A DNA stretch of 64,000 nucleotides from Amphiscolops sp. MND2022 (Eukaryota), in contig OZ076409.1 in the NCBI GenBank assembly GCA_964187785.1, forward strand, positions 39,372,001-39,436,000, read 5' to 3'. This document shows, one piece after another, positions 19,028-54,090 of the stretch. How positions within the stretch are numbered: position 1 is the stretch's first letter; every line of letters starts with the position of its first letter. A program made the position numbers and the translations under genes. Under the pieces are notes generated by a model that saw only the letters and a list, made by a program, of their open reading frames with translations, was not told where the DNA came from and did not search any database.

Positions 19028-19044
19028 TGGCGACCACAGAGGGA
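19028..19044 (+). promoter_or_regulatory. PBS, tRNA-Arg-like (TGGCGACCACAGAGGGA)
   Basis: An identical 17-mer occurs on the minus strand at 52960-52976 next to another LTR. Confidence 0.75.
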
Positions 19045-30749: not shown

Positions 30750-33700
30750 TCAACGTGAGAGTTCCGGAGGTGATAGTAACTTGAGTCTACGGGAATGGCC
30801 CTCAGTGAAATCTTTAGTGACCAATTCCTTATTTTCAGAAGCAATGTCTGGTAGAGTAGCTATCGACCAACAGCGAAAGGAGGAGCAAAACGCCATGGCT
30901 CTTAATTCAGACAATTCACCGGTTTCGGAGGAACACCTCCGCAATGGGCAATGGATCCAGGATACCAGGGGTGGGTTGAAAACTTCACTTCAAACGGGAG
31001 GTTTCTGTCTGGAATCCAATAACACGGCCGTCAATGCAACTATCTCAACGAGAAGGGTGCTCGAGGGCACCCGACGAAGGTATCAGCTCTGGGAGCAAAG
31101 ATACCGATGCCATCCTTGAGAGCATGACGTACGTGGGTGGCATGAACTGTGCCAAATATCGTCTGGAGGCTGGTCGTACGAAGGCCTTTGGGACGCATTA
31201 AAAGGTGCGCGCTCCGACATTGCGTATGCCGGACGAACTGGACCGTGATATTGCACAGTGAAGGTGCGACAGCGCCACCTCTTCACGACGATCATCGACG
31301 TTTCATGCCGTGGAGGACGCAGTGGCCGCCAGAACCGCAATGTTACAAGCGGAGGCTTAGGCACATCGAGCTTTGGCACGCTCGGCGAATACCCGTGCCG
31401 AATGCAATGAGCAGCATAAGGTGATGACCGCAGAGCTTGAAGCCATGCAAAGCTCTGTAAAGGAGAGCCTGAGGGCTACCAACCAGCAGCACACTCTGCA
31501 AAAGTGCAATCTGCAAAAGTGGATGCTTTGGGATATTAGTTGGAAGAAATGAAAGATTGATTCCTCCAACGCAAAACTCGCATGGAAGTGCAGATGGCTG
31601 CGCTCAGTACAAAGATGCACTCACTGAGCAGTGCAACACATGGCAGCGACCAACTCGAAGCAGATAAGCCGACCACATCCAGCATAAAGGTGGTGCCTGC
31701 GCGCACCCCTGACCCGGCATTGATATTGAAGGCAAGCAATAAAACGGTAACCAAAGCACCCAAGCCTCCCGAGGCAACCAAGACGCCCACTAAGGTGCAG
31801 GTGTGTGCGTCAATTTCCCTGAGTACTGTTCAGCTACTGCCCACACTGTCACTCACTCGAACTGAAGACCGAGGAGTAGATCCTATGACCAACACCTCTG
31901 CGATCATAGACCTAACTGACACAAATGCCACAGCTGCATCCCACACCAGCAGTGTAGAAGACGACACTTACGCTACCGCTAGGGTAAGGACCACTGGAAC
32001 TGACTCGTTGTTCCTGACTGCTAGCGAGGGGGTGCTTGCGGGCAACACTAGTGCCAGTAGCACTCGTAAAAAGGAACACCTGAATGGAGATCTATCCACG
32101 CAAGCTAAGAAAAGTAGCCGGGATAATTCCCCTGTAGCCAGTGATGAATAGAAAGTAGTTTCCCCGGAACAGCTGCGTATCACAGCTGCATTATCCAAAG
32201 CTATGTCGAAGGAACTGGCTCCATTGTTAGCTGGCCGCAAACCCTCCCAACCCCGACCTAGTGTTTACAGAAGATCCAAAAAAGGCTCCATTGATGGCTG
32301 GATCCTAGTCATGCGCCGTTATCTACAACGCACGCAAACCAAAGCGACTCCAGATGATAAGGCTTGGGTCATCATCAGTCACGTGGAAGGCGAAGCTCGC
32401 AACTATATCATCAACAAGGCTGAGTCCGAACGGGACAAGCCTGAAAAAGTATTGGAATTGTTGGCCAGTCGATTCGGAACTGGAGGCAATCGGATGCAAG
32501 TGCGTCAAGCCTTTGCCATTCGACAAAAATCCGAAAAGGAAGACTGGATGCAGTAATTAGACGCTCTAGAAGGACTGCGCAGTCAGGGATTCCATTATGA
32601 GCCTATCACCACTAAGCGTTACGAAATACCGCAGCGCTTCATCGAGAGTGTCCTTGACGCTGCTTTGCGAAGGGAACTGTCCATCATTTACGCACCCGAA
32701 ACCACCGTCACTGCCCCACCCACTGTGGAATCTTTGAGGTTCACCACCAGGCAGTTGGAACGCAACCGACCCAAGTCTTCACAACCATATGATTCCCGGT
32801 ACGCTATGAGGTCGAGGCCTCATCCCTTCGCACCGTTACTCCCAAACAAGATTGTATTGCCGCGAGGAGTTTTGCCCCCACCTCCTCCAAGCAATGCACC
32901 AGTTAACCCGGCAGCTGCGCCACCAACTGCACGCTTGCCGCTCGTAAGCGGCGTCTGTTTCGCCGTGGGCAGACGGGTCACTTTGCCCGAGATTGTCCTA
33001 CCCGAGATCAGGCTTGCCAATGCGCCATAGTGCTAGAGCCAAAAGCCGTGAAAACCACTGCTGAGGACGTTCTAGAGTGCATCGCAGAGAACTGCTCCGG
33101 AGTCCGCTTTTGCGCCAATTGCGGCGTGGTAGATCACATCGCCTAACAATGTGTGGAAGCTCTTGTGGTGACTTCGCTTACAGTCGATGGGCGGAAGTCG
33201 AGGTGGCTGATGCAGCTGCCCACACTGTGCCACTAGAGGTTGATTGAGTGTTGGTGCTTCACCCCGCGGAACCTCCAGACTTCTACACAACCCTAACTAT
33301 AACGTGTGGTGCCAAGCAAGTGCAAACGTGCTTGGAACCAATTACCTTTGACCCCCAAGGGCGTACGCTCACATCTATTCATTTGATGTTGGCTGCAGAA
33401 CAGCTTTGTCGCCCGAGATTAACTGTGGCCAAAATCTGGGCTCAACTATCCATCCTGTACAAGCGAGTGGAACTCCCTCGCCCAAAAGAATGGTAAGTTC
33501 CCGGAGATTCGGACACTTTGACCACGAATTCTCCTGTGCTTATTTGCGCCACAAAAGACGGCGTGGTTGTGAAGTTTGAATCCTGCGTCGTATTTGACGT
33601 GTTCCCTCCCGGCAAACGCCTGGGATCCCAAGAGCTTAAATGCTACAACGTCAGTTACCAGGAACACACCGGCGAAGATCGAATAGACGAGCGTGGGTCG

Positions 33701-34130
33701 CTCGTCGTGTCCTTCATAGTGCGGCACCAATTCCAGGGACAGGCCACGTCTTTATCAGCGTGATGAACCTCACGAGCAACCCACAACGTATCCGTGGTAA
33801 CACCCTCTTGGGAACCGTGATATCCGTATACCTGGTATACAAAGTTGTGCCCCAACATGTGGATGGTCCAAAACCAAAAACTGAAGTCGATAAAGACCAT
33901 ATTGATTTTGTTACTTAATTTTATACGAAAACTAATCTCAGTACCAACTCGCAATTAACTGTTTCCTAGGAATTTGAGTTTTTTTCGTCAACAGATCCTT
34001 CCGAGGAAGGCATTTCAGACCGTGAAAAACGGAAACGCACAGATCCCGAGCTGATCGCTCCTATACCGGGACCAGAGTCACAGCTACAGGAGCTAAAGGA
34101 CCTGTGGAGCTCTGCAGCGAGCACCTCTCT
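30750..34130 (+). pseudogene. Decayed gag / protease-region coding sequence
   Basis: SIDGWILVMRRYLQ...HVEGEARNYI...LASRFG capsid-like block, CCHC remnants at ~32955-33150, LGSQELKCYNV and RIDERGSLVV; many stops and frameshifts. Confidence 0.78.
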
Positions 34131-34659
34131 AGAGAACACCTCGTTCCTAACACCTCGAGCGGTGTCGACAAAAGAAGTTCCAGGTCCAAAGGCGAAAAGA
34201 GACATGAAAAAGATCTTTATTGCTGAATTGCCATTCTCACGTTGAGTCATGTGCATTCTGTCTACTGTCTTTCCTGTAGCGGAGCTTGCGCCCTCCCAGC
34301 AAAAGAAATTTTAAACAAAAAACTGGAAAATCTGAATTGTAAAAATTGGAGAAAAAATTTTTAGCTGGCACTAGCCGCAAAAAACGTTTTAACCTCCAAA
34401 TGTGTTTCAAAATGGCAAAACCCACCAAAAAAATCCCAGCTCTCGAGCTGGTGCTAGAACGGTCAAAATTTTTTTGTAAAAATATGAAGTTTTGAGGTAG
34501 TATTTCATAGGATCCCAGACGGCACTATTCCTTCAACAGCTGTCAGACAAAGATTCGTCCTTGTTTCAAGACGTATTCACAGGTTGGGAGACAACCCTGT
34601 TCCTATACGAGGTCCTGCAGTGCTTGCGGCGGAGGACAAGCCAGAAGCCCGGGGAGTGG

Positions 34660-35360
34660 TGTAACGGCAATCTGTGATCACCGAAAAATTTTGAAAAACT
34701 CGTTCGAAACTGACGTGGCACTCGAGCATAATTTTGGTAAAGTACCTATCAGCAGAAATCATAAAGAGGCAGACAGAAAAGCGCCCCGGGAAGAGAGAGC
34801 GAGAAAAAAAAGCGTGACAAGGACGAAAAAAGTCAAAAACAGCGAATTGGCTGTATCCACGGTGTTTGTCTGGTGAAAATATGGTTTTGAATGACTGACC
34901 CGCAAATCAGCGTGACAGCTTGAAGATCGCAGTGCCCGTGCCCGGGGGTTGTGCCCAGCTCGAGCGCTGGTGCCATGCCTCCCGAAAGCCCACTAGTTTC
35001 GCCGAACTGGACTTAATTGTCGTAATTGATGTATTTGTTTGATTAGTTATTAGCTCGAGGGCTACTCCTACATTGTGCATTTACCCAGATTCCCGATGGT
35101 AAAAGTCACTACCTTGTTGTTTTTATGAGGTATCTACACGGTGGTTGTGAGAGGAAAGCACAATTCCTTTGATTCTTAGCAGTTACAGACTGGTATCAGG
35201 CCAGAGAGCATCTCTAGAGACGGTTCCCCCTCCTCGGGACCGGCTAGCCTTAGGAGGACAAAGTGAGCTGATATCATGGTAGTTTGTCCCGGACCAAAGC
35301 CATGGTCCCAGTTCCTCCACTCCAATGTCACGATACAAACGCTCAGCGCTTGCCGTTACA
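34660..35360 (+). repeat. 3' LTR
   Basis: TGTAACGG...CCGTTACA after the PPT; homologous to solo LTR 16862-17579. Confidence 0.88.
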
Positions 35361-36119
35361 TTTGTTTGAGATAAAAACGTAGTTTTCGTTATCCTCTTAG
35401 CTGGATGTTGCGATTTTTTGCTTTCGAAGACAGTTTTGTCCAATTGGTGTGAAATGTTCGATGATTGTTCTTAATCTGGAGTACCTGAAATTTGACACAT
35501 TGTCTTTTGTGTTCTTCCGAGGTAATATATCTTTCCGTAGTTGGATTCGGTCCAAGCCTTTCATTATCCGCTTCCCTTTTTGCTCCACGTATTTCAGACT
35601 TAACGTCGTTCCGTAATTTCTCATATATTGCTCTATTAGTTTCATTTGGAAATTCAATCAGGTTCAAAGAAATTTGGGAAATGATTGAATTCTATCTTCT
35701 TAAAGTTGATCGTCATTTATTGGACTGAGTTTGGGCTTCGGCAAGTTTTTAAAAATGACTGCTTTTTTACCCTTAAAGTTGTTCAAATATTTGTATTCGA
35801 GGGTGTTTTATCAAAAAAAAAGCAACTGTTTGTCGGGTGCCAGTAAAATTTTTATGGTCACTGTGTAGTGATCACTAAACTCTGTCAGCAGTGTTTTGGT
35901 ATTCTAGTAGTTTTTTATCATATGATCAAGACCTCGTAGATGTAACTCTCGTAGCCAAATGGTTTTTCTACCTTTCTCTGTTTTCCTGATTTCTGCCTGA
36001 ATGAATAAATATCACACGGATAACGTTATCTATAAAAATGTGTTCTTCAAACAGACATTTTTGTTAGTTCCTAATGACAACTCTGTAGTTGACGCCTAAC
36101 TCTGTAGGGAGTTTCGGAT
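35361..36119 (-). pseudogene. Degenerate LINE middle fragment (endonuclease end and linker)
   Basis: Remnants SDHYTV and YEKLRNDVKSEIRGAK; colinear with the RT fragment at 27500-28430. Confidence 0.6.
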
Positions 36120-36838
36120 TGTAACGTCCGGCTAGCGGCGCACATCTAGGAAGAGGGAAAATGCCTAGGGTGCTTAAACAGGAGACCGTTGTCTTACTAC
36201 ATCCCTAGACACTAGTTTTTCTTCCCAAAATGGTCTCCTAGGGGGACTTTTCTATCGTCTAAGGAGGCTTCTCTAGTTAGAGCCCCGAAGCGACGCGCCG
36301 GCACTCTCAAAGTCCGGACACGCCCCACAAGCCTGTAGAAACGTATCCTAGGTTCCTAATGCCTTCCTACGAGTTCCTACATGCCTCCGAGGTCAAAACA
36401 GTGATTAGCTGGAAAACATCTTATTTTGCAAATGAGATATAAAAAGACCTAGAAGGTCAAACATCTTTCAAATACCAAAGGGGAAATATGGGGATTACAA
36501 AGAAAAGCGGGGATAAACCCCAGTTACTTTACAGTTTTTAAGCCATCGTTAGAAATACGTCTCTGGTAATCTTCATCGGATGTTGCTGACTTCCACAGGA
36601 GATGGCACAACCCTCCGATAGTCGCTGTTTTGATATTTCTCGATCTTCTTGCATTCTTTCATCATTCTCTGCATTTTTTCTAGCACGTGCTCCATTTCTT
36701 GCTCGCTCTCCGCGTGTTCTCTCTTTTCTTTCACGCCTTTTGTACCTGCTAGGTCGGCCATCTTTTTTCTTCTATTTTGACATCGCACATTTCGAATTTT
36801 TCATCGAAATTTTGGTCATGCCGGTGGCAGACGTTACA
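36120..36838 (-). repeat. 3' LTR
   Basis: TGTAACGTC...GACGTTACA, with adjacent PPT ggcccggggagga on the minus strand. Confidence 0.95.
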
Positions 36839-37388
36839 TCCTCCCCGGGCCGTAGTTTGTCGTCCTCGGCAAACGAGAGGATGGTAATACCCAGGGGGTG
36901 ATAGCAATGCTGAGAGTTTTCCGAACACCTTGGGAAGGTTTCATTTTTTTAACTTGTTTTCTTTTAATCTCCAAATTTCCCTTTTATTTCCTCGCATTAA
37001 TGTCAGTCAGTCTTACGATAACTTAAGAATTTACTTGACAAAACTAAAAGCGTGGCAGACGATTTCAAAAATTACATGTAATTCCACGAACTTAAGTTAA
37101 ATTCTTTTTCTCTAGAAGGTGCTCTGGCACTTCTCTGAGTAACAAAATTCGCGTCATGGTAACAATGGTCATGTGTTGGGTTAGGGAGTGTGGGAACTGG
37201 CTCAGGGTCCACACGCACAGCATAGTTCAACTAAAATTCTAAGCATGTAACAAGTATTGTTCAGGAACTCAGTGTTTTAGCACCAACAAAAATGAAATGA
37301 TTTAGGACCATTAGGATGAAGTTGTGTTCATTTAAGGGCAAGTCCTGGTGTTCACTTAATGGACGAGTCGGCATCAGTAGCTACTCTT

Positions 37389-40300
37389 TCACTCATCGTT
37401 TTGGCTTTGTTGCGAGTCCGAAACGGATGAAGTCACTGTGGACTGCTGATTTGTTGACGATTCCGCCACCAAGGGAGGATATTGCATTGACTCGTCGATG
37501 GTGAGCAAATTATTCAACTCTGATCCAATATCGGCAGCGTCCATTTGCGATATTCCCGTCTCGGGTTCATCTTGGGTAGGGGTCGCGCTGTCGGACAGAA
37601 TGAAGTTATCGTCCATCATGGGTTCATCATGGGTTTCCGCGGCGATGGATGAATTCTCCTGGTCTTCTTCCATTCGAGTTTCATTTCCTTCCGAGGATAA
37701 CCTACGGGGTATTGTTTGCTGTCAGCTGCCGGGGGCAGCCGCATTTGTTGCATTATTTTCTTCGGTGATATTTCCCTGTGGGAAGTCAGGCAGCTTGTCG
37801 GCCAATTCTGGGTGGCCGTATTGTATGAATAAATTTTTGAAGGTCTGGATTCCACGTGCATAGTCTTCGACAACAGAATGCCCTCGTTCTTTTTGTTTGC
37901 TGTGTAGATTCAGGAACATTTCCAGCGCGGCGCGCGGATTGCTTGGGACATCTGTACTGATTGGCAAGGTTTTTCTATTTGGTTCTTTTGCCACTGAGGG
38001 CGTCTTGGCCTTTATGCGCTGGGATGTCTGGTGAACTGCTAAGTCCACCAAGTCTGGTTTCGACCAGCATGTTGTTGCTTGTAATATGTTGGATGGGTGT
38101 GCGCGGGGATTGGTTCGATTACAATACATCCTTGAAGCGTCACATACGTAAGGATACCGCAACCCGGTGGGGCTTTCGCCTCGCCTTCTGCCGCCTAATC
38201 TCTGGATCACAGTGGCTAAGATCCTTAAGATCACTTCTGTGCTCCAGTCTGCAAGGGAATGCGCTGCTCCTGTCGCTGGGTTCAGAGGGATATGTAGCCA
38301 TGCAATTGGGTGGAATTCCATTGGCATCGGGAGGGCGCATCGCGCACGTGCTCTTATAATAGACGTGAAGTTGTGTTCCACCTGCTTTTTGTCTTTGATG
38401 ATCGTGTAGGCCATGGGCGGTCGCAGGGAACTGAAGTTGGCTACTACTCTGCGGTAGGTGGGCTCCTGTTGGATTCCATCTGTTGTTACAAAGTGTAGTA
38501 TGGAGTAGGTGGGAGTATTCGCTGCCATACGTAAGACTTGGGTCGGGTATCTTAGTGCCATGACCGCGCCAAAGATTGGCCAGACTATGGGAGCTATTAG
38601 AGGTATTAAGTCCTCTGTTTCCTTGAAAAGAGCTAGGAGCTCTTCATGGAATTTCGGATCGTGAGTCTTCTCATCGAGGGTGGATTCGTCCCTTCTTTCA
38701 AACCAGAGGTTATCTATCAGGTGTTTTCGCTCACTCTCGTTTGGGTCAAATACTTTGCGAACACCGTTTTCGTCTATGGATCTGATGGACATTTGCATCC
38801 CATAGTCGTATGCAGTGGCTTCGTCAACAAGAAGTTGTGAGTTGCCTTCATATCCCGTATATCCTTGGACAGCCTTGGATATGTCGGCCAAGAATGCTGG
38901 GTACGATGCCTCACAGGGACGCCATGTGGTCACGTTGATCCCTAAGTTTGGGGCAACGATGTAGAAGTGCAAATCTCTTGCATAGGATGCTTCCATCACC
39001 AAAACAAGAATTGTTGCAACGCTCTTGGGAGATAGATGTACCCAGGAGGTGACACGAAGACAGTTCCTGTGTTTGGTTTCTTATTCCTCATCATTGTGGC
39101 AATGCGGGACATTGTTTCTATGTACGCGGTTACTTCGTCGGTGACAAATCCTTCAGTGAATCGAGTGCTCAGCGCATCGAAATGTCGCAGTGATCCTCGC
39201 AGTGCAAGGTGGTCGATCACGTTTGAGTATATCAGGATTGGTGGGAGAGGTATTGTTTCTGCCGCCGCTGGCGTGAACATTTTATCGGTTACCTCTGCCA
39301 TTTCATTGAGTGTGGTGCAGGGCATGTTCATTAGTCTGACATCCATCAGAGTATTGTTGGCAGTATACAATGATTTGATGGTTGAGTCGACAAAGAGAGC
39401 AATTCTGGTTTTTTGCAATAGGTCTTTCCCCATTGGTAGCAGGGTGATGGGGTTCCTGGCGTAATTTGTTGATTGCAAATGATTCTCTCCGAGTCTGCCG
39501 GGTCTCTGGCGAGCGAGTCGCTCGTTGGTTGCTTGGAGCGGTTGTAAGTACGTGGAGTTGCTGTTCTGCAATTCTCTCGTGAGACGCTCGAACCATGGTG
39601 GGACTCCTCCATCATTGGCGAATATTGGTGGCTTAACTGGTCGGTTGTAAACTACTCCAATGTTGGCCTTCTCTATAGTTCGCTGAGTGGTTTGGTCCCC
39701 TCTGCTGTTAGCGCTCGCAAACTTCTGTCTTGGGGGATTTTCTTCGTCAGGCATATTTGGTATTTCGCGTTGAAGACGCAGTGCGTCTCTCGCTGTAATA
39801 TCCAACTGTTTCATTTCTGCCGCAGTCAGCAGCTCTCTTGCGACTTTTTGCCTCCTGGCCTCTGGTTGGCTAGGGGAAGGGGCCGGAGTTCCCCTGTTTG
39901 ACCTTGAGCTAGTTTGTCCGTCTTGTTCCCTAGCTCTCTTGGTTGCGTTCAATTTGTCGCGAAGGTCCACTGGGGCATTGTTGGTCTTTCTTTCCTCTCG
40001 CTGTTCTTCTTTTTGCCGCTCATCCAGTTTTGGATCTTTTTGAAATCCTACTAGTCTGCTGGGTTCGTTTTGAGCAGGTTGGGTGTTGGAGGTGGAGGGA
40101 ATTAGTTCTTCGTATGAGTCTTGGAACGTGACTTTTCTCGTCTGGAGTGTTTCGTTGGCCTGTTCTTGTGTTGTTACTTGGTTGCATTCGATGGGGTTTG
40201 TTTGCATCGCTTGCACCCCTCCCCCCTGAAAGGTGGAAGGAAGCATGAAGCCAGAAGTAGATGGAGTAAGCGGTCTGATACCCACAGATGCCAGAGGCAT

Positions 40301-40831
40301 AGGTGGTGTAAGGATTGGAGGTGGCATCAAGGGTAGGGTGCAGCGGAAAGCTGGAGCCTCGGTGGGCTGAAGCTGAGGTATGGCTTGGGATGGGGTTGGC
40401 TGCGGTGTTTGGAACATGGGTTGAATCGTTGGTGGAGAGATTCTGAACGATCGTTCTTGATCCATTGAAGGCCTTTCAGGTTCTCCATAAAGCATGTGAG
40501 AGCGAGGGTCAATGAGATTGTGAGTTAGGTCATACCCATGCCAAATGCCATCGCGGAAGGTAGCGGAACGCTCAAGCGGTCCGATGCTACTCGTGATAGT
40601 TAAGAGGACTTCTGGATGCGCAGCTTGCGCTTGCATCTGTGCGACAATCTTGGCGAAGCCAGCGATCATGGTGGGGTTGGCCCCGTCTTGTAAAGCTTGT
40701 TGGACTAAGGCTAGTTGGTCGACGCGACCATTAACCTCGCCCACTGGTGGAAGAGTGTTAGGAGGTACTCGAGGTTGGGGATTCTGTTGGCTGTTGGGTG
40801 CAGGCATGCGGTTGCGTGATGAAGGGTCCAT
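37389..40831 (-). pseudogene. Accessory ORF (~1150 codons, two frameshifts): Pro/Gln-rich N-terminus, SGNH-hydrolase-like central domain, acidic tail
   Basis: ORFs 38996..40975, 37722..39002 and 37389..37673 abut or overlap. Motifs RIALFVDS, MPCTT, ILIYSNVIDHL and VFVSPP occur at SGNH-like spacing. Confidence 0.65.
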
Positions 40832-41244
40832 TGATAGCACTGATAGGGGATAGGGTGATATTGATGAAACTGAGTGATGGTGCACTTTAGGAAAGCTGCG
40901 CAAGGGCGAAGCAACAGGATTAAACTGAAAAGCAAGTTGCATATGAACAGAGAGAAGTTTCATAGGATATATCAAAAGGGTTAAGAAGGGAATACAAGTG
41001 ATTACAACTTAAAAATACAGTGTAAGCGTTAAAAAGACTTGTAGCTGAATAGAGTACCGTCATTAGAAGTTCTACGGACTAATCCGCGCGTATTGAGGAA
41101 GTCAACAGAGAAAATGGGATGGTTTTTCAGAAAATTAAGGAGGGTGGGCCTTTGGCCCTGCAGTAATGAGGATTCAACGAGCGGTGATGTCAATAGAAGA
41201 AATTGATGCGATTGAGACGTAGACTCTATCATGGAGTATTATTG

Positions 41245-42334
41245 CTAGATCCGATCCGAAAAAATGGTCCGGGAGGGTGGTGTATCAGATTGGTAAGAGG
41301 TTGATCGATCGTTCGGGATCATAGATGGGCATGTGAATGTGGGAAATTCCGTGTTGGTGGAGCAGGTGTCGGAGGTGGTTGAGGCATGTATGTAGGGTTT
41401 CATGCAGGAGGGGGTGTTTGCTGGAGGCTCTGGTGCATAGGAGGACAATTTGATTGTTCCAGGGTGCCATGTGGGAATGTTGTGAGCGAATGGCCATTCC
41501 AACTGAAGGTTTTAAACGGAAGATGGCTTCTTGTCCATATTCGCGAATGACATAGCGAATAGTCGCCGATTGGGATTGGAGGTCTGCGGGACAACACAAC
41601 ACTAGTGTGCCAGAGGCTTGTAGAATGTCCGTGTCGGAGTAAGTAATCCAGGGCACGTGGTTTGGACGAATCTTCGGTTGTGTTATGAGCCATTTCCCAG
41701 TTTCCACTGCATGATTTTTCAGGGGGTTCGAGATCAAGTGTCCAAAAATTGCTTTGCGATCTTCCCATATTGTGCGATGCAGGGGGCGGTCACCCATGTG
41801 TATGCATGACCAGCTGTGCATTATGGAAAGCGCTTCTAAGGGAGAGATGGGAGTCTCAGGTGTGTATGTCAATCGGTCGAGAATACAGATCTTCGTTTGT
41901 CTGCAAAATATAATGGCTATCAGTTGCAGCCAGTGTTGGCTCAAGAATTTGCCGCGGTAAATGTCGGCGAGATGAAAACACAGGGTGTCGTTTGTCTTGA
42001 CGAGGGTGCGTAGATTCTCTAGACACAATAATAATGTAGTTGGTGAGACCAACGAAGAGTCATCGGAGGAAGTGACTAGGAGCCACCATCCAGCGGATGG
42101 TTGATATACGTCACCTGGAGGGGAAGTGATGTGATATTTTCTCCATAGTTGGTTGGCGGTAATGCAGCGAATCATTTGGGGGTTGTTGCAGGTATCGTCT
42201 AGCTCACCGAACGAGAATGAGGGTGGTAAAGGGGGAATGATTGCTGCCAATGTGACCTCGAGTCCACCCTTTTCGTGGGTTGTCCATTCTTTGAAGCGAT
42301 ATGTTGGACAATGGGAAGGAGAGAATGTGTGCAT
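41245..42334 (-). CDS. Tandem TARG1/OARD1-like macrodomain region, probably a C-terminal extension of Pol
   Basis: ITYSDTDIL..LVLCCPADL..IREYG..PSVG..IVLLCTR..ETLHTCLNHLR..GISHIHMP, preceded by a more diverged copy (PGDV..WLLVT..CLENLR..WLQLIAIIF). In frame with ORF 42335..42727 across a single TAA. Confidence 0.68.
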
Positions 42335-45300
42335 TTATTTCAGAGTGGACTCCAGAGGTGGTATGGATTCGGACTCGATACTTGTAAAGGTCTTCTCGAT
42401 TGTTAGGATGATGTGTCGGATAGTTGGCGGGGATTCGGGTGCTTGTGAATTCGCTCGGATATTCACGACTTCGTGTTGTGGATGGTTTGCTGATTGCGCT
42501 AAGAAAATTTCGCAAGCCGGAATCGCCTCTCCCCGGGCCAGTCGTTGATTCGGGGGTCCCGTAGTGATTAGCTGGATGCAACTACAGTCACGGGAACCAC
42601 AGGTTCCGCATTTATACCTCGGCGCTCTGTTGGCTCGGAGTTGATAGCGTGGCGCTTGTCTGGAGGTATCGTCTGGTTGGTTTGATTGAGTAGTGGTTGA
42701 GCTTTTAGGAATCTGAGGGAGGGTCATGGCTCTGTCAAGCGTCCTGGGTGTGGTCCTGGAGGAAAATCTTGTTCTTGGGCCTTCTCTGGGCTGTGTGGTT
42801 GGTTGCCGGGAAGACGTGGTTGTTCCGCTTGATGACGAGGGTAGTTGGTTTCGGCGACCGGGGGGTCTGCCTCGAGGTCGACCTCTCCTGCTGGTAGTTG
42901 TGGGAGGTGGGTTTCGATTCGTGATCTGGTTGTCAGGATCGGCGTTGCATTCTTGTTGTTTGGATCGTTTGTTCGTTGATTGAATAGGGGGAAGTTGCTT
43001 AAGGTGTCTGTGAGCGAGGGATTAGATAATAATGGGGCTGAAATCCCGGAGGGTGATGGTATTAAGCTGTCGGTGAGGGCTGGTGGTAGTATTTCCTCTT
43101 GATCAGAAAATACTGGTTCTAGATCATCGATTTCGAGGGATACTACTTGGGAGGGAGATATTATGGGAGGGGGTCCAGGCTCTTCAGGCTCAGAGTCTGA
43201 TTCGGATGGGTATCCGAATTGGCTGAATCTCCTGCGCGGGATCCCTCGTTCTAAGGCGGTCTGGGTACGTGTCTGGATGGTACGAGGAGGGACTGGTCTC
43301 GTGGGTTCCAGTTCGAACGATGCCTCTGGGAGTTGTTCGGGTAGGAAGGAGTCCCTAGAGACATCGGAGGTAATTTCTTCGTTAGTGTCCTCCACGTATG
43401 GATCGGCGATGATGGCTATATTTGGATCCGGTCTGAAAGGTTGGTGAGTGGTCCAATCCCAAGGGGCTGGTACGTGTTTCTTTAGTCTCTCGTAGTGGAC
43501 CTTTTGACCTGTGTCGAGCACGTAGAGGCGTCCATCTTGTAGTACGTCGGTTATTTTGTGGGGTCCACGCCATGCGCGAATAAGCTTACGAGTGCCACCT
43601 TTGGGGATTATGTGACAGAATACCCAGACAGCGTCGCCAATGGCGTGTGCTTTTGCTTTTAGATGGCGGTCGAATTTTAGCTTTGTCGAAGCTGAGCTTG
43701 ATCCTTCGTACCAATTCATGGATTTCTTGTTGCCTGGCCAATAGGTGTTCCACGAATTCTTCTTTGGAATCAAAACCTCGCGCTGCGAATTCTGGGTAAA
43801 TAAATGATAGTGGGATGGATTTCTCTGCGCCATGGTGGAGCATGTAGGGTGAAAATCCTGTTGTTGCGTGTCGGATGGAGTTGTACGCGCCCAGAACTCC
43901 ATCAATGTATTCGTCCCAGTCTTGCATTTTACGTGATGTGTAGACCCTGAGCAGGGTGAGCAAAGTTCGATTCTGCCGTTCCACGAGACCGTTCCCTCTG
44001 GGGTGTGCTGGGGTGGACGTAACTTTGGTAACTTGAGAGGCTTTCATAAGTTCCTGAGCGATCTCAGCGGTGAAATTGGTCGCATTGTCTGATTGCATCC
44101 TGGCCGGAGTGCCGTGCCTGGCAAACCATTTGTTTAGGATAATTTTCGCCGTGGTTTGCGCGCGGTATTCGTCATGGGCGCATGGGACTGCTTCCGCAAA
44201 TTTGGTAAAGTGATCGATTCTTACCAAAAGGCCGGTGTTGCCTGAGTCGGTTTTGCAGAGTTTCAAATGATCGAATTGAACCAGGTCGTTGAAAATGCTA
44301 CTGTTGATATTCTGCAGGGGGTAGCAAGGATTTCCCGCTGGATGTTTTGCTTGTTGACAAGTTAAGCATTGCTTGATGTGATTTACTACGTCCCTTTTGA
44401 TTCCCGGCCAGGTATGCCGTTCTTGTATCCTGGCGAGCACTTTTCCCACGCCTCGATGTCCTGATTCATCGTGCGCTCGGTATAGGATTTCGTGTTGGAA
44501 AAGTTGCGGCATAACTATCATGCAAGGGCGTACGTGCAGAGCACGTTGTTGAGGGACGTAATTGACGCAGAGTATGTCGTCAGGGTTTAAGAAGAGCAGA
44601 TCCTTCTTTTGATGGTAATACCTCTTGGCGAAGTCTTGTTTTTCATCTGGGAACATTGGATCTTCTAGGGGTTCATTCTTCATGAGCTTCTTCAATGACA
44701 AGAGATGTACGTCTCTATTTTGAGCTATGTGTAGGTCTCGTAGGCCATATTTGATTAGATGACGTTCGTGCAATCCTGTTTCGATGGTTCTCAAAATCTC
44801 TGCTTGTTTTTGGCATTCGATGGGCAGTGCCCCCAGTGTTGGATCGGGTTTAGTGGTGTCTATTCGTACCGGAGGCATTCTCGTGGTCATGCTCAAGATT
44901 CGGTTAGGTCGTTCGTCTTCCTCAAGAGTCGGTGTGGTTTCCCATTGTATTTCGGGATTCCAAGGGGTATCTCCTATTGGCTCTTCGGATTGTTTGCTCT
45001 TTCGTCTCTTCTGAAGAATGTATAGTAGCTAAATGAGCTCGAGCTTGTGGAGGAAGTTCTGGATGGTTTGGAATGAGGTGACCGCGTTTGTCAATGTATG
45101 GGACTGTGGGGAGTTCGTCGTAGTCCTTTTGTGACATGAAGTTGAATCCTTCGCTTACTTCTGGTAGCTTTTCGAGGATTTGTTCGCGGTTAATATAGTC
45201 GTTGGTTCGCTTGCTGAGTCCATCGACATTTCGGTGTTGTGTACGCGGTCTGTGGATTGTTTTAAAATGGTATTGGTCTAGGCGTGCGATCCAACGGCCA

Positions 45301-47890
45301 ATCATAGCTTGGTCCATGGAGTAGGTTTTGAGCCATGACAGGGCTTGGTTGTCCACGCGAAGCGTAAACTCTCTACCTGCAAGATATGAGTGGAATTTCT
45401 CCACGAAGTAAAACACTGCATACATTTCCAACTTGGGGGCACCATAATTGAGTTGGGTTTTGGTCAGTGATTTGCTGCCGTATACTATTGGTCTCAGGAT
45501 GGTTTTGCCATTGTATTCTTGTTCTTGATGTAGAATACCTGCGATCGCCACCTTGCTGACGTCTGTATCTAGCACGAATCGTCCTTGTTCGTTCGGTGCA
45601 GCTACGGTGGTGGCGTCGGATAGGGCTCGTTTCACTGAATCGAAGGCTTCTTGGTGTCTTCTTTCCCAACTGAAGTGTTGATTCTTCTTTAGCAATTCCT
45701 GCATGGGTTGTACTTTAGCGGCGTGGAATGGGACGAAATCGCGATAGTAGTTGGCGAATCCTAGGAAGCTTTGGAGTTCTTCTTTGTTCCTTGGTGGTAA
45801 CCACTCTCGGATTTTAGTCACTGCTTCTGGGTCGGGATTGATTCCGTCGGCTGATACTATTCGTCCCAGATATTTGGTTTCCGTGCGCATGAAGTCGCAC
45901 TTTTCTGCTCGCACTTTGAAGCCTGCTTCTCTGAGACATTCGAATACCTCTTTAATTCTCATTATGTGGTCTTCGATTGTTTCAGTTGCAATTACTATGT
46001 CGTCAATGTAAGCCATGACGACACTCCCGTGTCTTTAATGGATTTTTTGTAGTGCTCTGGTGATGGATCGTTGGAAGGTGGCGGATGCATTGCATTGCCC
46101 GAAGGGCTTGCGTCGCCATTCAAAGAATCCCAACTCACAGACAAATGCAGTTTTTCTTCTGTCGCGCTTCTTCAGTGGTATTTGCCAAAAGGCCCACGCT
46201 AGGTCGATGCTTGTGAAGATTTATGCGTTACCTATCCTGGGCAGACTTTCGACTATTCTGGGAAGGGAAAAGGCGTCTTTTACTGTCACGTCGTTTAACG
46301 GTCGGAAATCGCAACAGAAGCGAAGTTCGCCTGTCTTTTTCTTTACCATTACTAATCCACTAGCCCAAGGCGAGTAGGAAGGTTGGATTAAGCCTAAGGC
46401 CAAGAGGTTCCTTACTTCTTGATTGGTTTTGGCAGCCTTGTCAGGAGACATTCGTCTTGCTCCCTCCCGGTGGGAGATAGCTTCTGGTTCTAATTCGATA
46501 CGATGCTTTGCTATTGCACATTTTCCTATGTCGGCTTTATGTTTCATGAAGAGATCGTCGTACTCGTTTAAGACTTCTGCTAATTTATCTCTCGCTCCCT
46601 CCCCCCAGAACGAAAGGACAGAGGATAGGTCAGGGCCTGGTATTGGTTTCAATAGGGTGGGGTCAGTTTGCGCACGTTTTTCGCTTTCCGACATTTCCTC
46701 TTCTGACAACTCAGTAGACGATAAAAAGTTTTGTGCGAAAGAACTGAATTCACTGCTTGTGTCGTCAAGATCAACAATATTAATATTATTAACTTGTTCG
46801 ATTAAGGGCATGTAGGTTCCATCGGCTTGGTCAACCGGAATCGGTGTAAACTTAAAAACGGTAGGTTCTGCCTTGCCAAGGACAGTTTTGCTTGGGATTT
46901 GCAACTTTTCGGTAGCGGTTTTGTTTCTTATGGCTAGGTATACCGTGCCGTCGTCTCCCACTGAAGTTAGGGTGTCTTCTGAAACAAAGGAATTTCGGTT
47001 GTACATCCCGCTGGGATGTATCATCATATTACGGAAACGGTATTTGTTGGAGTCCTGTGTGATGACCTGCGCTCTAACCAACTTGCGCTCGAAAGGTCCT
47101 AGTACAACTTTGTCGGTGGATATTACCAAAGAAGGTTCATGGTCACTAACCTCATGGACGGGTTTGAAATTGCGTGGAGTTTTTGGGTCCCGGATGGTGA
47201 CCCTCATGGCGGTTACGTCCACGAGGACATTATAGGTGCGCAAGAAGTTGCGTCCCAACAGGAAGTCTTCAGCTCCTAGGTGGTCAGCGATGACAATAAA
47301 GTTGGTCTTCAGTGTGTGGCCACCCGAATGGAAGCTCACATTTTCAGCCATGCCGATAGTGGTTATCGTTTTGCCGTTGGCTGCGTATAGTTGAACGTCA
47401 TACGGCATGAGGCTCATCGAATGGGCGGAGGCAATCTTCTGGTATGCGGCGAGGGAGAGGATAGAGACACCTGAACCCGTGTCGATCATACCATATAAGG
47501 GAATGGGTTCCTGGAGGTTGTTGCCGAAGGCAACTACAAGCGATGCTCGTTCGTCTATGCGCGCTTCCCCTTGAGTGTCTTGCACTCCAATGTTATAACA
47601 CCTCAACTCCTGGCGACCCAGGTATAATCCCTGTGGGAAATTACCTTCTACGACTACGATGGCGTCAAATTTCATGTCGACCCCGTCTACGTTGATGGCT
47701 ACCGGTACTGGAGAAATTGTTTTCACTTTTTGGATTGGTGCTAATTTGGTTTCGTCCTCCCGGGTGAAGTGCGGTAGCGGTCGAGCCGCAACTGTATATT
47801 TGGTATTTCTGCACAGCTCTTCTTTTAATTGCGTCAATGTTAACTCGGGACGCGATTTTTGTTCCGCCGAGAGGAGTAAGTGTATAGAGA
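42335..47890 (-). pseudogene. Gypsy Pol (protease, RT, RNase H, integrase, long C-tail), frameshifted
   Basis: MIDTGS; SPWAS..DFRPLN; YIDD; LDTDVSK; VDNQAL; DGLSKR; integrase HDESGH..CLTC, QFDHL, QSDNA, GLVERQNR; WRGPH; RRGRPRGRPP. Confidence 0.93.
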
Positions 47891-47892
47891 TG

Positions 47893-50800
47893 AGCCACCT
47901 TGCATTTGGAGGAGATGAGGGTTGAAGATCTAACGTCATCTTTGATTGACACCAGATAAACACAAGCACCGTAGGCTTTTTCGGAAGCATCACAGAAGAC
48001 TTGCAAAGAGGCTTCATCGTACAAGTGGGTTGGTAGCACCTTCCTGGGTATCTTGAGTTGTGAGAGCGAGCCCATGCCATCTTTCCAGTTTGTGTATGCT
48101 CGTGACACATCGTCTGGGACTGTATCGTTCCACTCAAGATCCAGCTTCCAACACGACTGAATGATGATCTTGGCTACTATGAGAACTGGAGTTATGAGGC
48201 CAAATGGATCAAAATGTTTTGAAACATCACTGAGTAAAGTTCGTTTGGTAATGATTGAAACATACTCACTACTACATGCGTACACAAAGTGATCCTCTAG
48301 AGGATGCCACGTCAGTCCCAGTGTTTTGATTTGATGGGTTTTATCGTTGATTTCATAGGCCTTACAAGCTTCTTGAAGGTCTTCGGGAAGACGAGTGACC
48401 AGTTGGGGTTCGTTGCTGCTCCACTTGCGTAGTGGGAGACAGTTCTTAATGAGGGTTTCAATCAGATTGTCTTGAAGCACGCATGCTTCCTCTAGTGTAT
48501 CAGCACCACTAAGTAGATCATCAACCCAGAAGTCATTGAGAATCACATTCACTGTGTTGGGGTTGGATCCGTTTGTTTTACCACTCTCTTGAAGTGCTCG
48601 GGTTGAATGGTAGGAGGAACTGGCAACACCGTACGTCACACGGGTCATGCGCAGTTCTCGGATTTCGTCCGTCAAGAAATCACGCCACAGAATTCGGTGG
48701 ACGTCACGATCTGATTCGTCTAAGGCCACTTGTCGATACATCTTTGCCACATCTGCCGACAAGGCATATTGGTGTAGGCGAAAGCGAATGAGGATGTCGA
48801 GCACATCGTCTTGTAAGCGAGGTCCAAGCAGTAAGCAATCGTTGAGAGAGTAGCCATTTGGGGACTTGCTGCTAGCATCGAACACGACACGAAGCTTTGT
48901 TGTTGTACTATCTTTGAACACACAGTGATGGGGTAAGTAGTAACACAACCCTGAAGTGTGACGAGCTTCTTCCAAGTGACCCATGTCTAGAAATTCCTTG
49001 ATGAAGTCACGATACTGCTGCTTCACATCACCGTGATCCTTGAGCTTTCGTTCCAAAGCGAACAATCTCTGCTTGGCTGTTTGAAAGTTGGTCGAGGGAC
49101 GTGCCTCAGACTTGAAAGGAAGATGAACTGTGATGCGGCCGTCATCTGGCACATAGGTCGTCGTATCGTAATGTTCCACACATTGACGATTTTCTTTGGA
49201 CATCGGCTTCACTCGAGGAATCTCTTCAACTTCCCAGAACTGAGTAAGATCCAGTTCCACTGCAACTTGGAATGATTGACATTGGTAGGCACGCACTTGG
49301 GACAACACTCCAGTGACCACCCAGCCGAAGATAGACTTGCGATAGTGAAGCCCATGAGCCTTCCTCCTTTCGTCCAGAAAGAGATCCTCGTACACATCCG
49401 CGCCCAACAATAATTGAACGGGGCCAGGTTGATGGAAGTTTTCGTCAGCTAATGCTACACTTTTCATTGATTTCAATTGCTTCAAATTAATGGATTGAGA
49501 GGGTATATTACCTGCAATTGAGTTCAGCACTAGTGCTGTTACCGGCAATTTTTGAGGACCAATCACGAGATTGACTGACTCCTTTGCTGCTTGTTGCCGT
49601 CCACCAATCCCTGAGATCTTCACATCTACTGTTGACCGTGCAAGGTTGAGGTTTGATGCACCTTCTGCTGTGATGAAGGATGTTTGAGAACCTGAGTCCA
49701 GCAAGGCTCGAAACATCATCGTCTTTCCCGCTGCATCATCTATGCCAACCATTGCTGTTAACAGAAGCACAGATGGACCACTGAATGTGGCACCACTCGT
49801 CACACCACCTTGCTGCTCGACTGGACGATCAAAGTGCAGTGATGTATGATGCCTCCCGTTGCAAGTGCGGCAGCTGAATTTCGATGGACAATCAGCCACG
49901 AAATGCCGCCCCAGACAATTCATGCACAGTTTGAGCTTCCTCACCACTGCCTTTCTCTCACGTGTGCCCAACTGCTTGTAGCGATCACACTGAGAAATTG
50001 AGTGAGACCCATTGCATTCTTTCATCTGACAGTTTGCTGAGTGCTCAACAGTTGAGGGGTATGCTTCTTGAAGCACCTTCTTGGGCGTCGTCTTGGGGAC
50101 GGAAGCCTCATGCTGGTCGCCGCTTGATTCCAATGCACGGCTTCGTCTATCCATGAATGTAGTTAACTCCTTGAATGTTAACACATCTGTGCCAGGATGA
50201 GCCAATTCAAATTGCTTCCTCGACTCAGCATCAAGTTTTTCAAGCAGCCAGTACACAAGTATTGCATCCCATTGATCGACAGGAAGCCCTAAGGCTTCTA
50301 GTGCTTGCACATGTTCATTGGTCGACTCCAGTAACTTGCGCAGCTCGACACTTGACTCCTTCTTGATGGCTGGTAGGGCATGAATTGCCGCCAAGTGCGC
50401 CTTCACGATTGATCGCTTGTTGTTGTAGCGCTCCTCTAACTTACGCTTGGTGATGTCGTAATTGGTAATTGGTAATGTCACGTTTGCTGTCAACCAAGGT
50501 TGTAAATTGATCCCAGAAGGAGACCCACTGCGTATATTCGCCACTGAATGAGGGAAGAGTCAGCTTGGGGAGCTTTGTAGTCAGGCTGCCACTTGATGGT
50601 GTTGCTGCAGCGCTTGGGCCTGGAGGCTGCAACTCCTTGATTCTGCCCTGACACCACTTCACAGCCCTTTCTGCTGCCAGGAACACATCTGCAGCTTCAT
50701 CCACATCAGCGTCTAGCTCATCGTCTTCTTCAATGAGTTGTTGAATCTGTGAATCCAACTCTGTCAGCATCTTTCGACGGTCGATCAGAAACTCCAATGT

Positions 50801-50956
50801 GGCTTGCACATCCTCGAGTGCTCCACCGGCTTGCCGGATTGCTGTAGCCCGTCTTGTGAGGACACCACGATGAGCCCCTCTTGATCGCTTCAATTGAGCC
50901 AACTTCTGCACACCACCAGAGCCGTCTGAACCTCCTGGAGCATCTGCTGTTGACAT
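47893..50956 (-). pseudogene. BEL/Pao Gag-Pol, truncated before integrase
   Basis: ORFs 50441..50959 and 47665..50544, with a frameshifting deletion near 50470. Confidence 0.9.
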
Positions 50957-50972
50957 CACGTCGAGGTCACCA
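50955..50972 (-). promoter_or_regulatory. PBS, tRNA-Trp-like
   Basis: TGGTGACCTCGACGTGAT on the minus strand, 1 nt after the putative LTR end. Confidence 0.8.
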
Positions 50973-50973
50973 A

Positions 50974-51515
50974 TGCTTTAGGGGTAGCTCTCAAGCTAAT
51001 ACGGAGAAACTCAAAGATAGAGTTCGAACTAGATGGATTGAGGGAACTCAAAGATAGAGTTCAAGCTAAAGGTTGAGGTCTTGTTCTCAAACAAGAAGAC
51101 TAAGATTGAAAACGTTTATTGACGATTTCTTATCACGGTAACGGTATGAATATAAATGAGTGAGTTTAGAGACAATAGTGGGGAACTGGTTGTTAGCAGG
51201 TTGTTAACCAGCAAATTAGGCAATTAAAGCCAAAAGGGCAACAAAAAGGTCTCAACTGGTTGTTTATATGTATGTAAAAACAACGTTTACAATAGTGAGC
51301 AATGGGTGGTAAATTGTACATCAAATGAGCAATGTAATTGCTGTCAAGCAAAGTGATTAATCAAAATTAAAGGTGAAAGAATAAATAGGCAAAGAAGCTA
51401 AAAAGCACTGTCGCAGATTCGAACTCGCGCAGACCGGTTCGAAGGCAAAGACTGATCCACTGTGCTAAGTGGATTAATAATTACTGCGCGATCATTGTGA
51501 TGTCATGCGCCAACA
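50974..51515 (-). repeat. Putative BEL/Pao 5' LTR
   Basis: TGTTGG...AAGCA bounded, adjacent to the PBS. Single copy, so the outer end is inferred. Confidence 0.6.
51400..51472 (-). ncRNA. tRNA-like Pol III unit (A box, B box, T-run) within the BEL LTR
   Basis: TAGCACAGTGG ... GAGTTCGAATC ... TTTTT at tRNA spacing; the cloverleaf stems are imperfect. Confidence 0.55.
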
Positions 51516-52959
51516 TGCGGCTAAGATTTCTCAATCACTAGTAATGCTAGCGCTACGAAAATTACACCACTAACGTAACTTTTTATGGTCTACGCGATGG
51601 TGCAATTCGTTTGAGGCTGCTTTTACTAGGAGGGATTTCGACCTGTGCTGGAAGCACTACTACATGGTTCCCAAAATGTCGCAAAAATAACGCGTTTTCG
51701 GCTATTTCTCAGCAACCACTGGTTGGAATCACTCGCGGTTTTCTGCGTTTGTAACGTTGCACTCTATAATAACAGAAAATGGGCAAGCAAAACCTGGTAG
51801 GATCCAAATGAGGTCTCAAAAATTTTTCAAATTGCACTTTTTACACTCTCGGAACAACACTGAAATAACGTGTTTTCGCCAAGAAATTCTTGTCTGTCAT
51901 TTCTTGGATGTTTGAGATCGTTTCAAAAGTATTGTAAGGAAGTGTGATAACTTATTTTGAGGGGTTGGGGTTCGTTCAGTTATTATTTTTGATGTTGTAT
52001 CTCTCAGGTCTATGGGGTCCTTTACTCAGGTCTATGTATATCAAAAGAAACAGGTCGTTAAAGTTTCAATTTCTATTGGGGAGCCGTAAAAAGCAACTTG
52101 GCAATAGTATTTTGTACTACCAAGCTAGGAAAAAGGGTTTTTGGGCTGATTTAGAAGCTTGGAAGCTAATCTCCAATGCTTTGCCCTCGTCAAATTGGGT
52201 CAAAATGGCCAAATTTGACGATTTTTCAACAAAAATCGCTGTATTTTTCGCTAATTTTGGGAAAGTGGCCCTGCGAATTTTTTTGTTCCTGACCCAGGGG
52301 GTCTATTGGAACGTTTTTCTAGTATTCCCACTGGCCTTACTCTATTTGACAAAATAGTGGCTTTCAAAATTCAAAATTTCGGTATTTGAGCTATAAATGA
52401 CGTTATTTTCGATGTTTTCGAGCTCAAAATTTTTTTACAACTGATCGGAATACCCTTTGGGTATTCTTCTCAGTTAGTTGTAGTGGGAATAGGCCTGGAA
52501 ATACTCTTTTTGGGCCTATAAATTAAGAAAATGGACGATTTCACCCGTATGACGTGGAGTATTGCAAATGCAGGGGCGTGGGAGGAGTAGTCGTGTAGGA
52601 CGTCGTCACGTCATCACAGCTGGTGGAAACCTTCAGCATTCGTCCTCTCTGTCCCCATACATTGCAAATTAGCTGAAATTAAGCTAAAAAACCCTTTAAA
52701 ACACGTCCCGGATAGGCCTGAACTGTTTTTTTTAGGTTTTAGTAAGGTAGAAGGGGGTACACTGTTATAAACTGTTAATTTCTCTAAGTAGACCTCAGAA
52801 ACATGCGGAAAACGCAGGAACAACACTAGAAGAAAGCCCAAAGGGCCAAAAAAAGGGCAATAAAAATAATCTAGGACTCTCCCATTAGTTTTCCTAGATC
52901 TGGACCCTCCGGGGCCGGAAAGCAGAAGTTGCTCCTACTTGTACGCAAAATGAAAAATA

Positions 52960-52976
52960 TCCCTCTGTGGTCGCCA
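52960..52976 (-). promoter_or_regulatory. PBS, tRNA-Arg-like
   Basis: TGGCGACCACAGAGGGA, 16 nt from the LTR end. Confidence 0.75.
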
Positions 52977-52992
52977 TAAAAACTATTCCAGA

Positions 52993-53713
52993 TGTAACGT
53001 CCGGCTAGCGGCGCACATCTAGGAAGAGGGAAAATGCCTAGGGGGTTCTTAAACAGGAGAACGTTGTCTTACTACATCCCTAGACACTAGTTTTTCTTCC
53101 CAAAATGGTCTCCTAGGGGGACTTTTCTATCGTCTAAGGAGGCTTCTCTAGTTAGAGCCCCGAAGCGACGCGCCGGCACTCTCAAAGTCCGGACACGCCC
53201 CACAAGCCTGTAAAAACGTATCCTAGGTTCCTAATGCGTTCCTACGAGTTCCTACATGCCTCCGAGGTCAAAACAGTGATTAGCTGGAAAACATCTTATT
53301 TTGCAAATGAGATATAAAAGGACCTAGAAGGTCAAACATCTTTCAAATACCAAAGGGGAAATATGGGGATTACAAAGAAAAACGGGGATAAACCCCAGTT
53401 ACTTTACAGTTTTCAAGCCATCGTTCGAAATACGTCTCTGGCAATCTTCATCGGATGTTGCTGACTTCCACAGGAGATGGCACAACACTCCGATAGTCGC
53501 TGTTTTGATATTTCTCGATCTTCTTGCATTCTTTCATCATTCTCTGCATTTTTTCTAGCACGTGCTCCATTTCTTGCTCGCTCTCCGCGTGTTCTCTCTT
53601 TTCTTTCACGCCTTTTGTACCTGCTAGGTCGGCCATCTTTTTTCTTCTATTTTGACATCGCACATTTCGAACTTTTCACCGAAATTTTGGTCATGCCGGT
53701 GGCAGACGTTACA
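52993..53713 (-). repeat. 5' LTR
   Basis: Direct repeat of 36120-36838. Confidence 0.95.
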
Positions 53714-54090
53714 GATATGTGTAACTATTTTCTAGCAAATCCGGCTGATAGAGTTTATATAGTCTATTAAAGATTACTCGATATTTCCGAGCGCAAGGCT
53801 AAGGGTCGTGGGTACTGCAATTGCCTTATTGCAATTGCAATTTGGTCTGAAAAGTAGCTTAAATCTTTCATTAGGGACTTTTTGGTACAATGAGTATTTA
53901 TGGAGTTTAAGATTAGGCAACGTAGCTACACTTGGACACCATCGCACAAGGAGAGCGTTCGTTCCTGGTCTGTTTTTAGCGGGCGTTTTCGAGGAAAATG
54001 CACGACTCTTACAGTGGCTACTTTTTATCGTCAGCTCAATGCGATCTGTTCACTTTTTGTGCACTGTGCACTTTTACCATAAGTAATTAG
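53714..54090 (-). pseudogene. Possible 5' (endonuclease) part of the interrupted LINE
   Basis: Weak remnants resembling GGV..Y and YRP motifs; position is colinear with 35361-36119. Confidence 0.35.

Follow-up and report, generated by a model that had tools for sequence, protein, structure and literature searches.

A Ty3/Gypsy clade of Amphiscolops sp. MND2022 with 3-bp target duplications, a displaced tRNA-Arg primer site and predicted macrodomain and SGNH folds

Ty3/Gypsy (Metaviridae) retrotransposons have TG...CA long terminal repeats (LTRs), a tRNA primer-binding site (PBS), a polypurine tract (PPT), a gag with CCHC knuckles, and protease (PR), reverse transcriptase (RT), RNase H (RH) and integrase (IN) in that order. 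All of these are found in the clade described here, which we followed from a 64,000-nt window of Amphiscolops sp. MND2022 (assembly GCA_964187785.1, contig OZ076409.1, positions 39,372,001 to 39,436,000; "the window" is this whole stretch). Self-comparison defines in the window a decayed Ty3/Gypsy element of 17,594 bp, element A, at 36120-53713 on the minus strand. The clade differs from Ty3/Gypsy elements generally in its length of 19 kb, a single open reading frame (ORF) of 3,200-3,300 aa, a pseudo-protease, a 3-bp target-site duplication (TSD) and a PBS that lies 14-18 nt off the LTR. We consider it probable that element A and its neighbours are decayed members of a large and abundant Ty3/Gypsy clade that makes 3-bp TSDs, is primed by tRNA-Arg at the displaced PBS, and carries macrodomain and SGNH folds that are predicted to be dead and are likely binding modules. 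Its most distinctive traits are the target duplication of 3 bp and the offset of the primer site from the LTR. Both go beyond a preliminary description made from the window sequence, as does the predicted loss of catalytic motifs in the two kinds of fold.

Comparable cargo is known from other LTR elements. Vesta retrotransposons of bdelloid rotifers encode a GDSL/SGNH ORF3 in which the invariant catalytic residues (S, G, N, H) are kept (PMC5408684). As far as the available part of that account goes, the clade resembles Vesta in having a separate SGNH-fold ORF downstream of pol in some families only, but its SGNH His is apparently Arg, the fold lies within a 1,400-aa protein, and macrodomains are fused to the integrase. 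The planarian giant Gypsy element Burro/GYPSM1 exceeds 30 kb and has a 4,873-aa ORF with MATH, BIR, BCL2 and env-like regions (PMC6431247). Like Burro as presented in the available part of that paper, the clade is very abundant and has a long single polyprotein with accessory domains; unlike Burro, it is smaller, without detected MATH, BIR, BCL2 or env-like regions, and that part gives no macrodomain for Burro. The same part sets the giant cut-off at an internal region >20 kb, whereas our elements total 18.7-21.8 kb including LTRs; the word "giant" in the preliminary description was thus overstated. Epsilon-like fish endogenous retroviruses carry macrodomain ORFs (PMC4977317) and, in the portion of that work available, share with the clade the macrodomain as LTR-retroelement cargo, but they are retroviruses with env and separate ORFs, whereas the clade is Gypsy with the macrodomain fused after the integrase. 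TSDs range from 3 to 6 bp among LTR elements and from 4 to 6 bp where retroviral integrases are at work, and many IS3 members make 3 bp (PMC10045372); by these values, the 3 bp of the clade stand at the rare low end of the geometry of retroviral and IS3-family DDE integration. Precedents exist for macrodomains, for SGNH ORFs and for 3-bp duplications taken singly.

Target duplications and the displaced primer site

The window holds three LTR families, A, B and C, all of which start with TGTAACG and end with CGTTACA, as had been noted; together with two further families, S and D, they share one plan. A 3-bp TSD flanks 34 of 39 scorable insertions, four having 4 bp and one none. These insertions come from two sets. 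The first (31 rows minus two duplicates, one internal flank and seven lacking an end) gave 3 bp in 17 of 21 elements, 4 bp in three and none in one, counted by eye. The second (40 LTRs minus five lacking an end and 17 with an internal flank, 15 flagged and two recognized by a decayed PBS) gave 3 bp in 17 of 18 true solo LTRs and 4 bp in the other. Shuffled pairing produces a 3-bp TSD in 1.9%, and of 12 BEL elements used as a control, all eight with both ends found have a 5-bp TSD. Chance and assembly artefact were ruled out by these two controls.

Over 18 nt, the PBS is complementary to the host tRNA-Arg(TCG). It lies 14-18 nt from the LTR at 25/25 distinct sites (27 rows including two duplicates, scanned with a pattern that detects offsets up to 25 nt only): 16 nt in A and S, 15 nt in B and D (2/2 copies of the latter) and 14-18 nt in C. 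In the BEL family of this genome, the PBS lies at 1 nt in 20/20. The exact A/S junction of LTR, spacer and PBS occurs 683 times in the genome. The identical PBS first reported for two families holds over 17 nt between A and B in the window and is also present in C copies elsewhere, so that it is common to all three. A tandem array of genes for this primer tRNA, with a period of ~173 bp, is located at G000:C9:57537789-57576392; the tRNA 3' end has 255 genome matches, 99 of the first 100 listed being inside the array, and some genes of the array read as TCA anticodons.

The spacer between LTR and PBS varies by family, while the PBS and a run of 4-5 T within one base of it are constant at 25/25 sites. 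The spacer was never found beside 3' or solo LTRs, where the TSD follows the terminal CA directly; it must therefore be removed. If replication follows the standard cycle, reverse transcription would extend the right cDNA end by the spacer, which then has to go at the latest when the element integrates. The integrase is the most likely agent of this trimming, and its cuts in the two target strands would be staggered by 3 nt. We infer rather than observe the spacer at the cDNA end because a genome search found no LTR-LTR junction retaining it, and this null result tells against that step. It is conceivable, although we lean against it, that the spacer never reaches the cDNA end, being removed by RNase H or left out by an early plus-strand stop at the T run, with an integrase that is ordinary except for the 3-nt stagger. 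The constant T run beside an otherwise family-specific spacer, the ordinary HHCC and D-D-E motifs of the integrase core and the missing junction fit this alternative, but standard reverse transcription copies everything between PBS and LTR.

The clade across the genome and in the window

In the 1.07-Gb genome, the LTR search listed 3,499 candidates, and the 40 that were scored yielded 42 matches. With the macrodomain region there were 4,348 candidates and 116 scored matches, 24 of which lie in open frames >3,200 aa, those of a sister family, S. A profile search of protein cluster representatives gave 346 matches, the best 150 of which are mostly short pieces. The possibility raised at the outset that the accessory modules are unique to element A is ruled out by the 116 scored matches and by conservation in B, C and D. 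Among 11 family A copies compared, nine are full length (18.7-21.8 kb including LTRs in the six measured); the other two are a 6-kb derivative and a copy with an internal rearrangement of its own. One A copy, at G000:C10:25885800-25908500, lies inside a B-like LTR, the insertion region being locally repeated.

The sister family S presents the plan in intact form. Its ORF1 is one frame of ~3,300 aa in 3/3 copies, with a long N-terminus, Gag, two CCHC knuckles, pseudo-protease, protease, RT, RH and IN, followed by a tail made of a low-complexity linker with RGRP, a cysteine motif and a C-terminal domain; the element measures 19,043 bp, of which the leader takes up 2,969 nt, and its ORF2 has 1,403 aa. 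Family D (two copies) has a 3,190-aa ORF1 and an ORF2. The cysteine motif is present in 7/7 related polyproteins and RGRP in 6/7, the seventh ending upstream of that point. The plan is not kept by all members, and two findings count against a single fixed one. The architecture is not uniform across the clade because ORF2 is absent from 3/3 long B copies, which all retain the C-terminal domain (42-43% identity), and the full order of pol, macrodomain region and ORF2 is seen in only 3/6 family C regions, two of the others being cut after the protease and one lacking a detected C-terminal domain.

In an RT/RNase H tree (46 rows, midpoint root, no named reference clades, family D left out and one A row dropped as too short), A, S, B and C form a group with four database proteins (support 100/99), which is nested in a larger group of 29 rows (100/100). 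The tree and the short B copies described below bear out the preliminary view of one lineage with several families and non-autonomous derivatives; the lineage is an abundant, internally varied Ty3/Gypsy clade. Its families may be described in Repbase Reports or in supplements of genome papers, and we give a small but real chance to the clade being a Gypsy family already catalogued in Repbase, Dfam or GyDB. Literature searches, with these three databases outside their scope, returned no description of the combination of features, and named database matches are at most ~41% identical in pol, both of which speak against a catalogued family.

The features of element A are as follows (all on the minus strand).
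53714-53716 and 36117-36119: 3-bp target duplication
52993-53713: 5' LTR, 721 bp, TG...CA, from self-comparison
52977-52992: 16-nt spacer from 5' LTR to PBS
52959-52976: 18-nt PBS, complement of the host tRNA-Arg(TCG) 3' end
51516-52958: rest of the 5' leader, 96-97% identical to sibling copies by alignment
47895-51515: BEL/Pao fragment (Pfam DUF1759, Peptidase_A17), foreign to the lineage; 5' LTR at ~50974-51515, PBS and gag-PR-RT-RH, with no IN and no 3' LTR
47560-47894: 3' part of the pseudo-protease, a protease fold without DTG motif
47238-47489: aspartic protease (Pfam), DTG at ~47480
45270-46350: RT and RNase H (Pfam), YIDD at 45999-46010, two stops
43550-44510: integrase (Pfam), HHCC and D-D-E core
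42863-42886: RGRPRGRP motif, AT-hook-like
42578-42610: C-x2-C-x4-C-x-C cysteine motif, possibly zinc-binding
41797-42230: predicted macrodomain-like fold 1, divergent (structure model residues ~113-230)
41227-41665: predicted macrodomain fold 2, TARG1/DarG class (Foldseek and structural comparison of the model)
37389-40831: ORF2, frameshifted here, ~1,400 aa in intact copies; low-complexity N-terminus, predicted SGNH fold at ~38830-39450, helical region, hydrophobic stretch at 38562-38597
38613-38622: site of a ~700-bp loss from ORF2, at a 10-bp direct repeat
36839-36849: PPT
36120-36838: 3' LTR, 719 bp, from self-comparison

The two LTRs are 98.06% identical by self-comparison. Pfam detected PR, RT, RNase H and integrase in Gypsy order plus the BEL/Pao fragment, and was silent on the ORFs downstream of the integrase (the macrodomain region and ORF2). 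Subtraction of the 3,621-bp BEL piece leaves 13,973 bp, in agreement with the ~14 kb estimated beforehand for the largest member without gag and BEL. The BEL piece is indeed foreign: it is missing from 9/9 full-length family A siblings and belongs to its own multi-copy family in the genome, and a role as a lineage module was rejected on both grounds. The idea of a clean insert did not hold, as the piece replaces ~4.2 kb of element A (leader end, gag and pseudo-protease start), where the nine siblings carry a gag-bearing segment of ~4.2 kb. The ~700 bp lost from ORF2 are present in 10/10 siblings spanning the deletion site, and pol and ORF2 of element A also hold stops and frameshifts. From the sibling comparison and these lesions, element A is dead, through a BEL insertion into the leader and a deletion that removed the BEL 3' half plus gag.

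The B and C members of the window are all on the plus strand.
16862-17579: family C solo LTR with a 3-bp target duplication
18241-26086: family B non-autonomous copy, LTRs 18241-19012 and 25324-26086
19028: PBS of the family B copy, after a 15-nt spacer
23196-24179: family B ORF of 327 aa, a Gag N-terminal piece plus three RGRP motifs
28460-35360: family C deleted copy with leader, decayed gag and pseudo-protease, 3' LTR 34660-35360

The deleted C copy lacks pol and a 5' LTR, and the two C LTRs are 81% identical by self-comparison. A tandem-unit remnant, ~200 bp of 3' internal sequence, precedes the 5' LTR of the B copy. The previously reported PPT, c(c/t)GGGGAG, sits 2-3 nt ahead of each 3' LTR, and RGRP motifs are shared between element A (42863-42886) and the family B ORF. 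Shared multi-kb leaders stood up in part: the S leader has this length and those of B and C are 75% alike by self-comparison of the window, but the A leader found no match to either in the same comparison. The short B subfamily has an open frame of 323-344 aa in 3/3 copies, including the window copy; the two further copies match its internal structure and carry their own TSDs. The three RGRP motifs of this ORF were not found in long B copies, and its product may act in trans.

Other repeats surround these elements. A decayed DNA transposon, which we take to be hAT-like, occupies 14059-15889; its ends are short and inverted, and the 8-bp repeat that flanks it is near-perfect. This transposon and the solo C LTR are enclosed at 13276-18030 by long inverted repeats (88% over 469 bp), which cut off the upstream unit of the tandem B element. 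A separate, ordinary Gypsy with CCHC, PR, RT, RH and IN lies at 1-5079 on the minus strand, its RT being only 27% identical to that of the large-element clade, and at 57597-57956 a 75-bp unit is repeated in tandem almost perfectly, with an inverted copy next to it.

Pseudo-protease, macrodomain and SGNH folds

The modules listed in the preliminary description were all recovered: PR, RT, RH and IN by Pfam, the pseudo-protease by profile, and two macrodomain folds and one SGNH fold by structure model. The pseudo-protease comprises 145 residues ahead of the active protease, aligned from 20/21 clade proteins and without DTG; its profile matched that of the active protease with an hhalign probability of 94.2% (E 1.1e-7), against 0.2% for a downstream control. 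As far as sampled, it marks the whole 29-row group. A region between PR and RT, undetected by Pfam, presumably resembles dUTPase, and we take the RGRPRGRP motif to be AT-hook-like.

The C-terminal 462 aa of ORF1 were modelled with a mean pLDDT of 61 as two alpha/beta domains. In the predicted model, fold 2 matches TARG1 (Foldseek E 1e-7; Z 14.5, rmsd 4.3, 144 aligned) as well as DarG and Poa1p, so that the TARG1/OARD1, DarG and Poa1p class is the closest, and the tandem folds align with PARP14 macro 1-2 and SARS SUD. Macrodomains are also carried by related polyproteins: P0320 and P0324, unnamed Gypsy polyproteins of the same wider clade, have one at the C-terminus each, and P0360, a Gypsy polyprotein outside it, has two canonical ones. 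The P0320 macrodomain matches TARG1 at E 2e-26, and both P0320 and P0360 retain the TARG1-like TK and PRIGCG motifs. When aligned to P0320, fold 2 of the clade has TR for TK (R in 47/50), and PIYDPERS and a Ser-rich loop stand where the glycine loops would be; by the alignment chain from TARG1 through P0320 to the clade, both of these loops are replaced. K84 and D125 are catalytic in TARG1. Unlike the TARG1 class and the relatives with one macrodomain, the clade thus has a doubled macrodomain with the glycine loops and the presumed catalytic positions replaced, which is why Pfam misses it. PDB sequence searches with the macrodomain and ORF2 alignments gave nothing useful, and a protein atlas gave only a weak macrodomain lead (0.87-0.89), the SGNH part being unmatched.

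In the model of ORF2, residues 8-199 retrieved mostly SGNH proteins among the top 50 structural matches, including Oskar OSK and the ZfL2-1 esterase. The SGNH Ser is kept in 21/22, and the expected His position is Arg in 46/49 rows and also in the distant family D. The position after the integrase is a cargo slot, because elsewhere in the wider group it is taken by a canonical SGNH (P0311) or a helicase (P0334, P0341). The latter two are Gypsy polyproteins of the double-protease group, of 3,697 and 3,930 aa, that end in an AAA_11/AAA_12 helicase. The canonical-SGNH family P0304/P0311 was not found at high identity in the genome (best 60% among 150 scored).

These accessory modules are conserved. 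The two macrodomain folds have dN/dS values of 0.06 and 0.15 when two A subfamilies are compared; between S and A, synonymous sites are saturated and the modules are 60-73% identical at the amino-acid level. These values indicate purifying selection. From the models and alignments, we predict that neither the macrodomain folds nor the SGNH fold is catalytically active and that they likely serve as binding modules instead. Several results weaken this prediction. Fold 1 matches macro-like domains at only Z 6-7. The ORF2 model is poor overall (mean pLDDT 47), and its best SGNH match is weak (Z 7.9, rmsd 3.9, 154 aligned; Foldseek E 0.03); with Z < 8, the support for the fold comes from the uniformity of the match list. 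The ORF2 profile failed to match the canonical SGNH of P0311, and His does occupy its expected position in 2/49 rows. The presumed catalytic positions of both folds were placed by alignment or motif position rather than by structural superposition. Finally, fold 2 may have kept some nucleotide binding, because D312 and D327 are conserved.

We regard as improbable that the folds are active enzymes with rearranged sites, the macrodomains erasing host ADP-ribosylation that serves defence and the ORF2 lipase aiding membrane passage. Strong purifying selection, the conserved Asp of fold 2 and Ser of the SGNH fold, and the canonical motifs of wider-clade relatives would suit such enzymes, as would the involvement of ADP-ribosylation in L1 silencing found in the available part of PMC4695847. 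The replacement of both glycine-rich loops and of the Lys position of the TARG1 class, and an Arg for the SGNH His even in family D, argue against them. That the lineage is infectious and retrovirus-like with ORF2 as an envelope substitute is very improbable: although ORF2 stands in the env position of an element with a long leader, shows in A, S and D a single hydrophobic stretch of 19 residues (hydropathy 2.1-2.3) and is modelled past the SGNH fold mostly at low confidence and with no fold assigned, Pfam found no match in it, no env signature was seen, the S protein has neither a furin-like R-x-K/R-R site nor a hydrophobic N-terminus among its top-scoring stretches, and the young family B (LTRs 99% alike) lacks ORF2. 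The term "retrovirus-like" used earlier is therefore unsupported.

Proposed replication cycle and implications

With the alternatives weighed, our preferred reading remains a Ty3/Gypsy clade with an unusual integration footprint and noncatalytic accessory folds. It builds on the observed architecture, copy number, primer complementarity, duplication length, spacer and conservation under purifying selection. By analogy to the standard Gypsy cycle, the element would be transcribed from the 5' LTR and translated into a single Gag-Pol polyprotein cut by its own protease, and tRNA-Arg(TCG) would prime reverse transcription. In other Gypsy elements, chromodomains occupy the integrase C-terminal position and tether the complex to chromatin; here the AT-hook, cysteine motif and tandem pseudo-macrodomains at this position would most likely tether it to DNA or chromatin. 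ORF2 is a dispensable accessory protein, as family B thrives in its absence, and likely binds RNA or membrane. Short copies that keep the LTRs, PBS, PPT and leader are likely mobilized in trans.

The 3-base footprint likely reflects an atypical integration enzyme. More tentatively, and with rather more doubt than confidence, we propose that this is a branch of a double-protease Gypsy clade with new integration chemistry, in which the integrase removes a 14-18-nt extension from one end of the cDNA and makes its target cuts 3 nt apart. A tail of AT-hook, zinc motif and tandem pseudo-macrodomains would steer it, and a pseudo-esterase ORF would aid it.

Retroviral integrases remove about two bases at the cDNA ends. 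For the limits of integration geometry, a natural test is offered by a young family that has hundreds of copies, a 3-bp TSD and a 14-18-nt extension to lose. LTR finders by default expect 4-6-bp duplications and an adjacent primer site, and with such defaults they would tend to miss or mis-bound these elements. The wider clade provides a graded series on the integrase, from canonical to degenerate doubled macrodomains, and thus a model for captured enzymes becoming binding modules.

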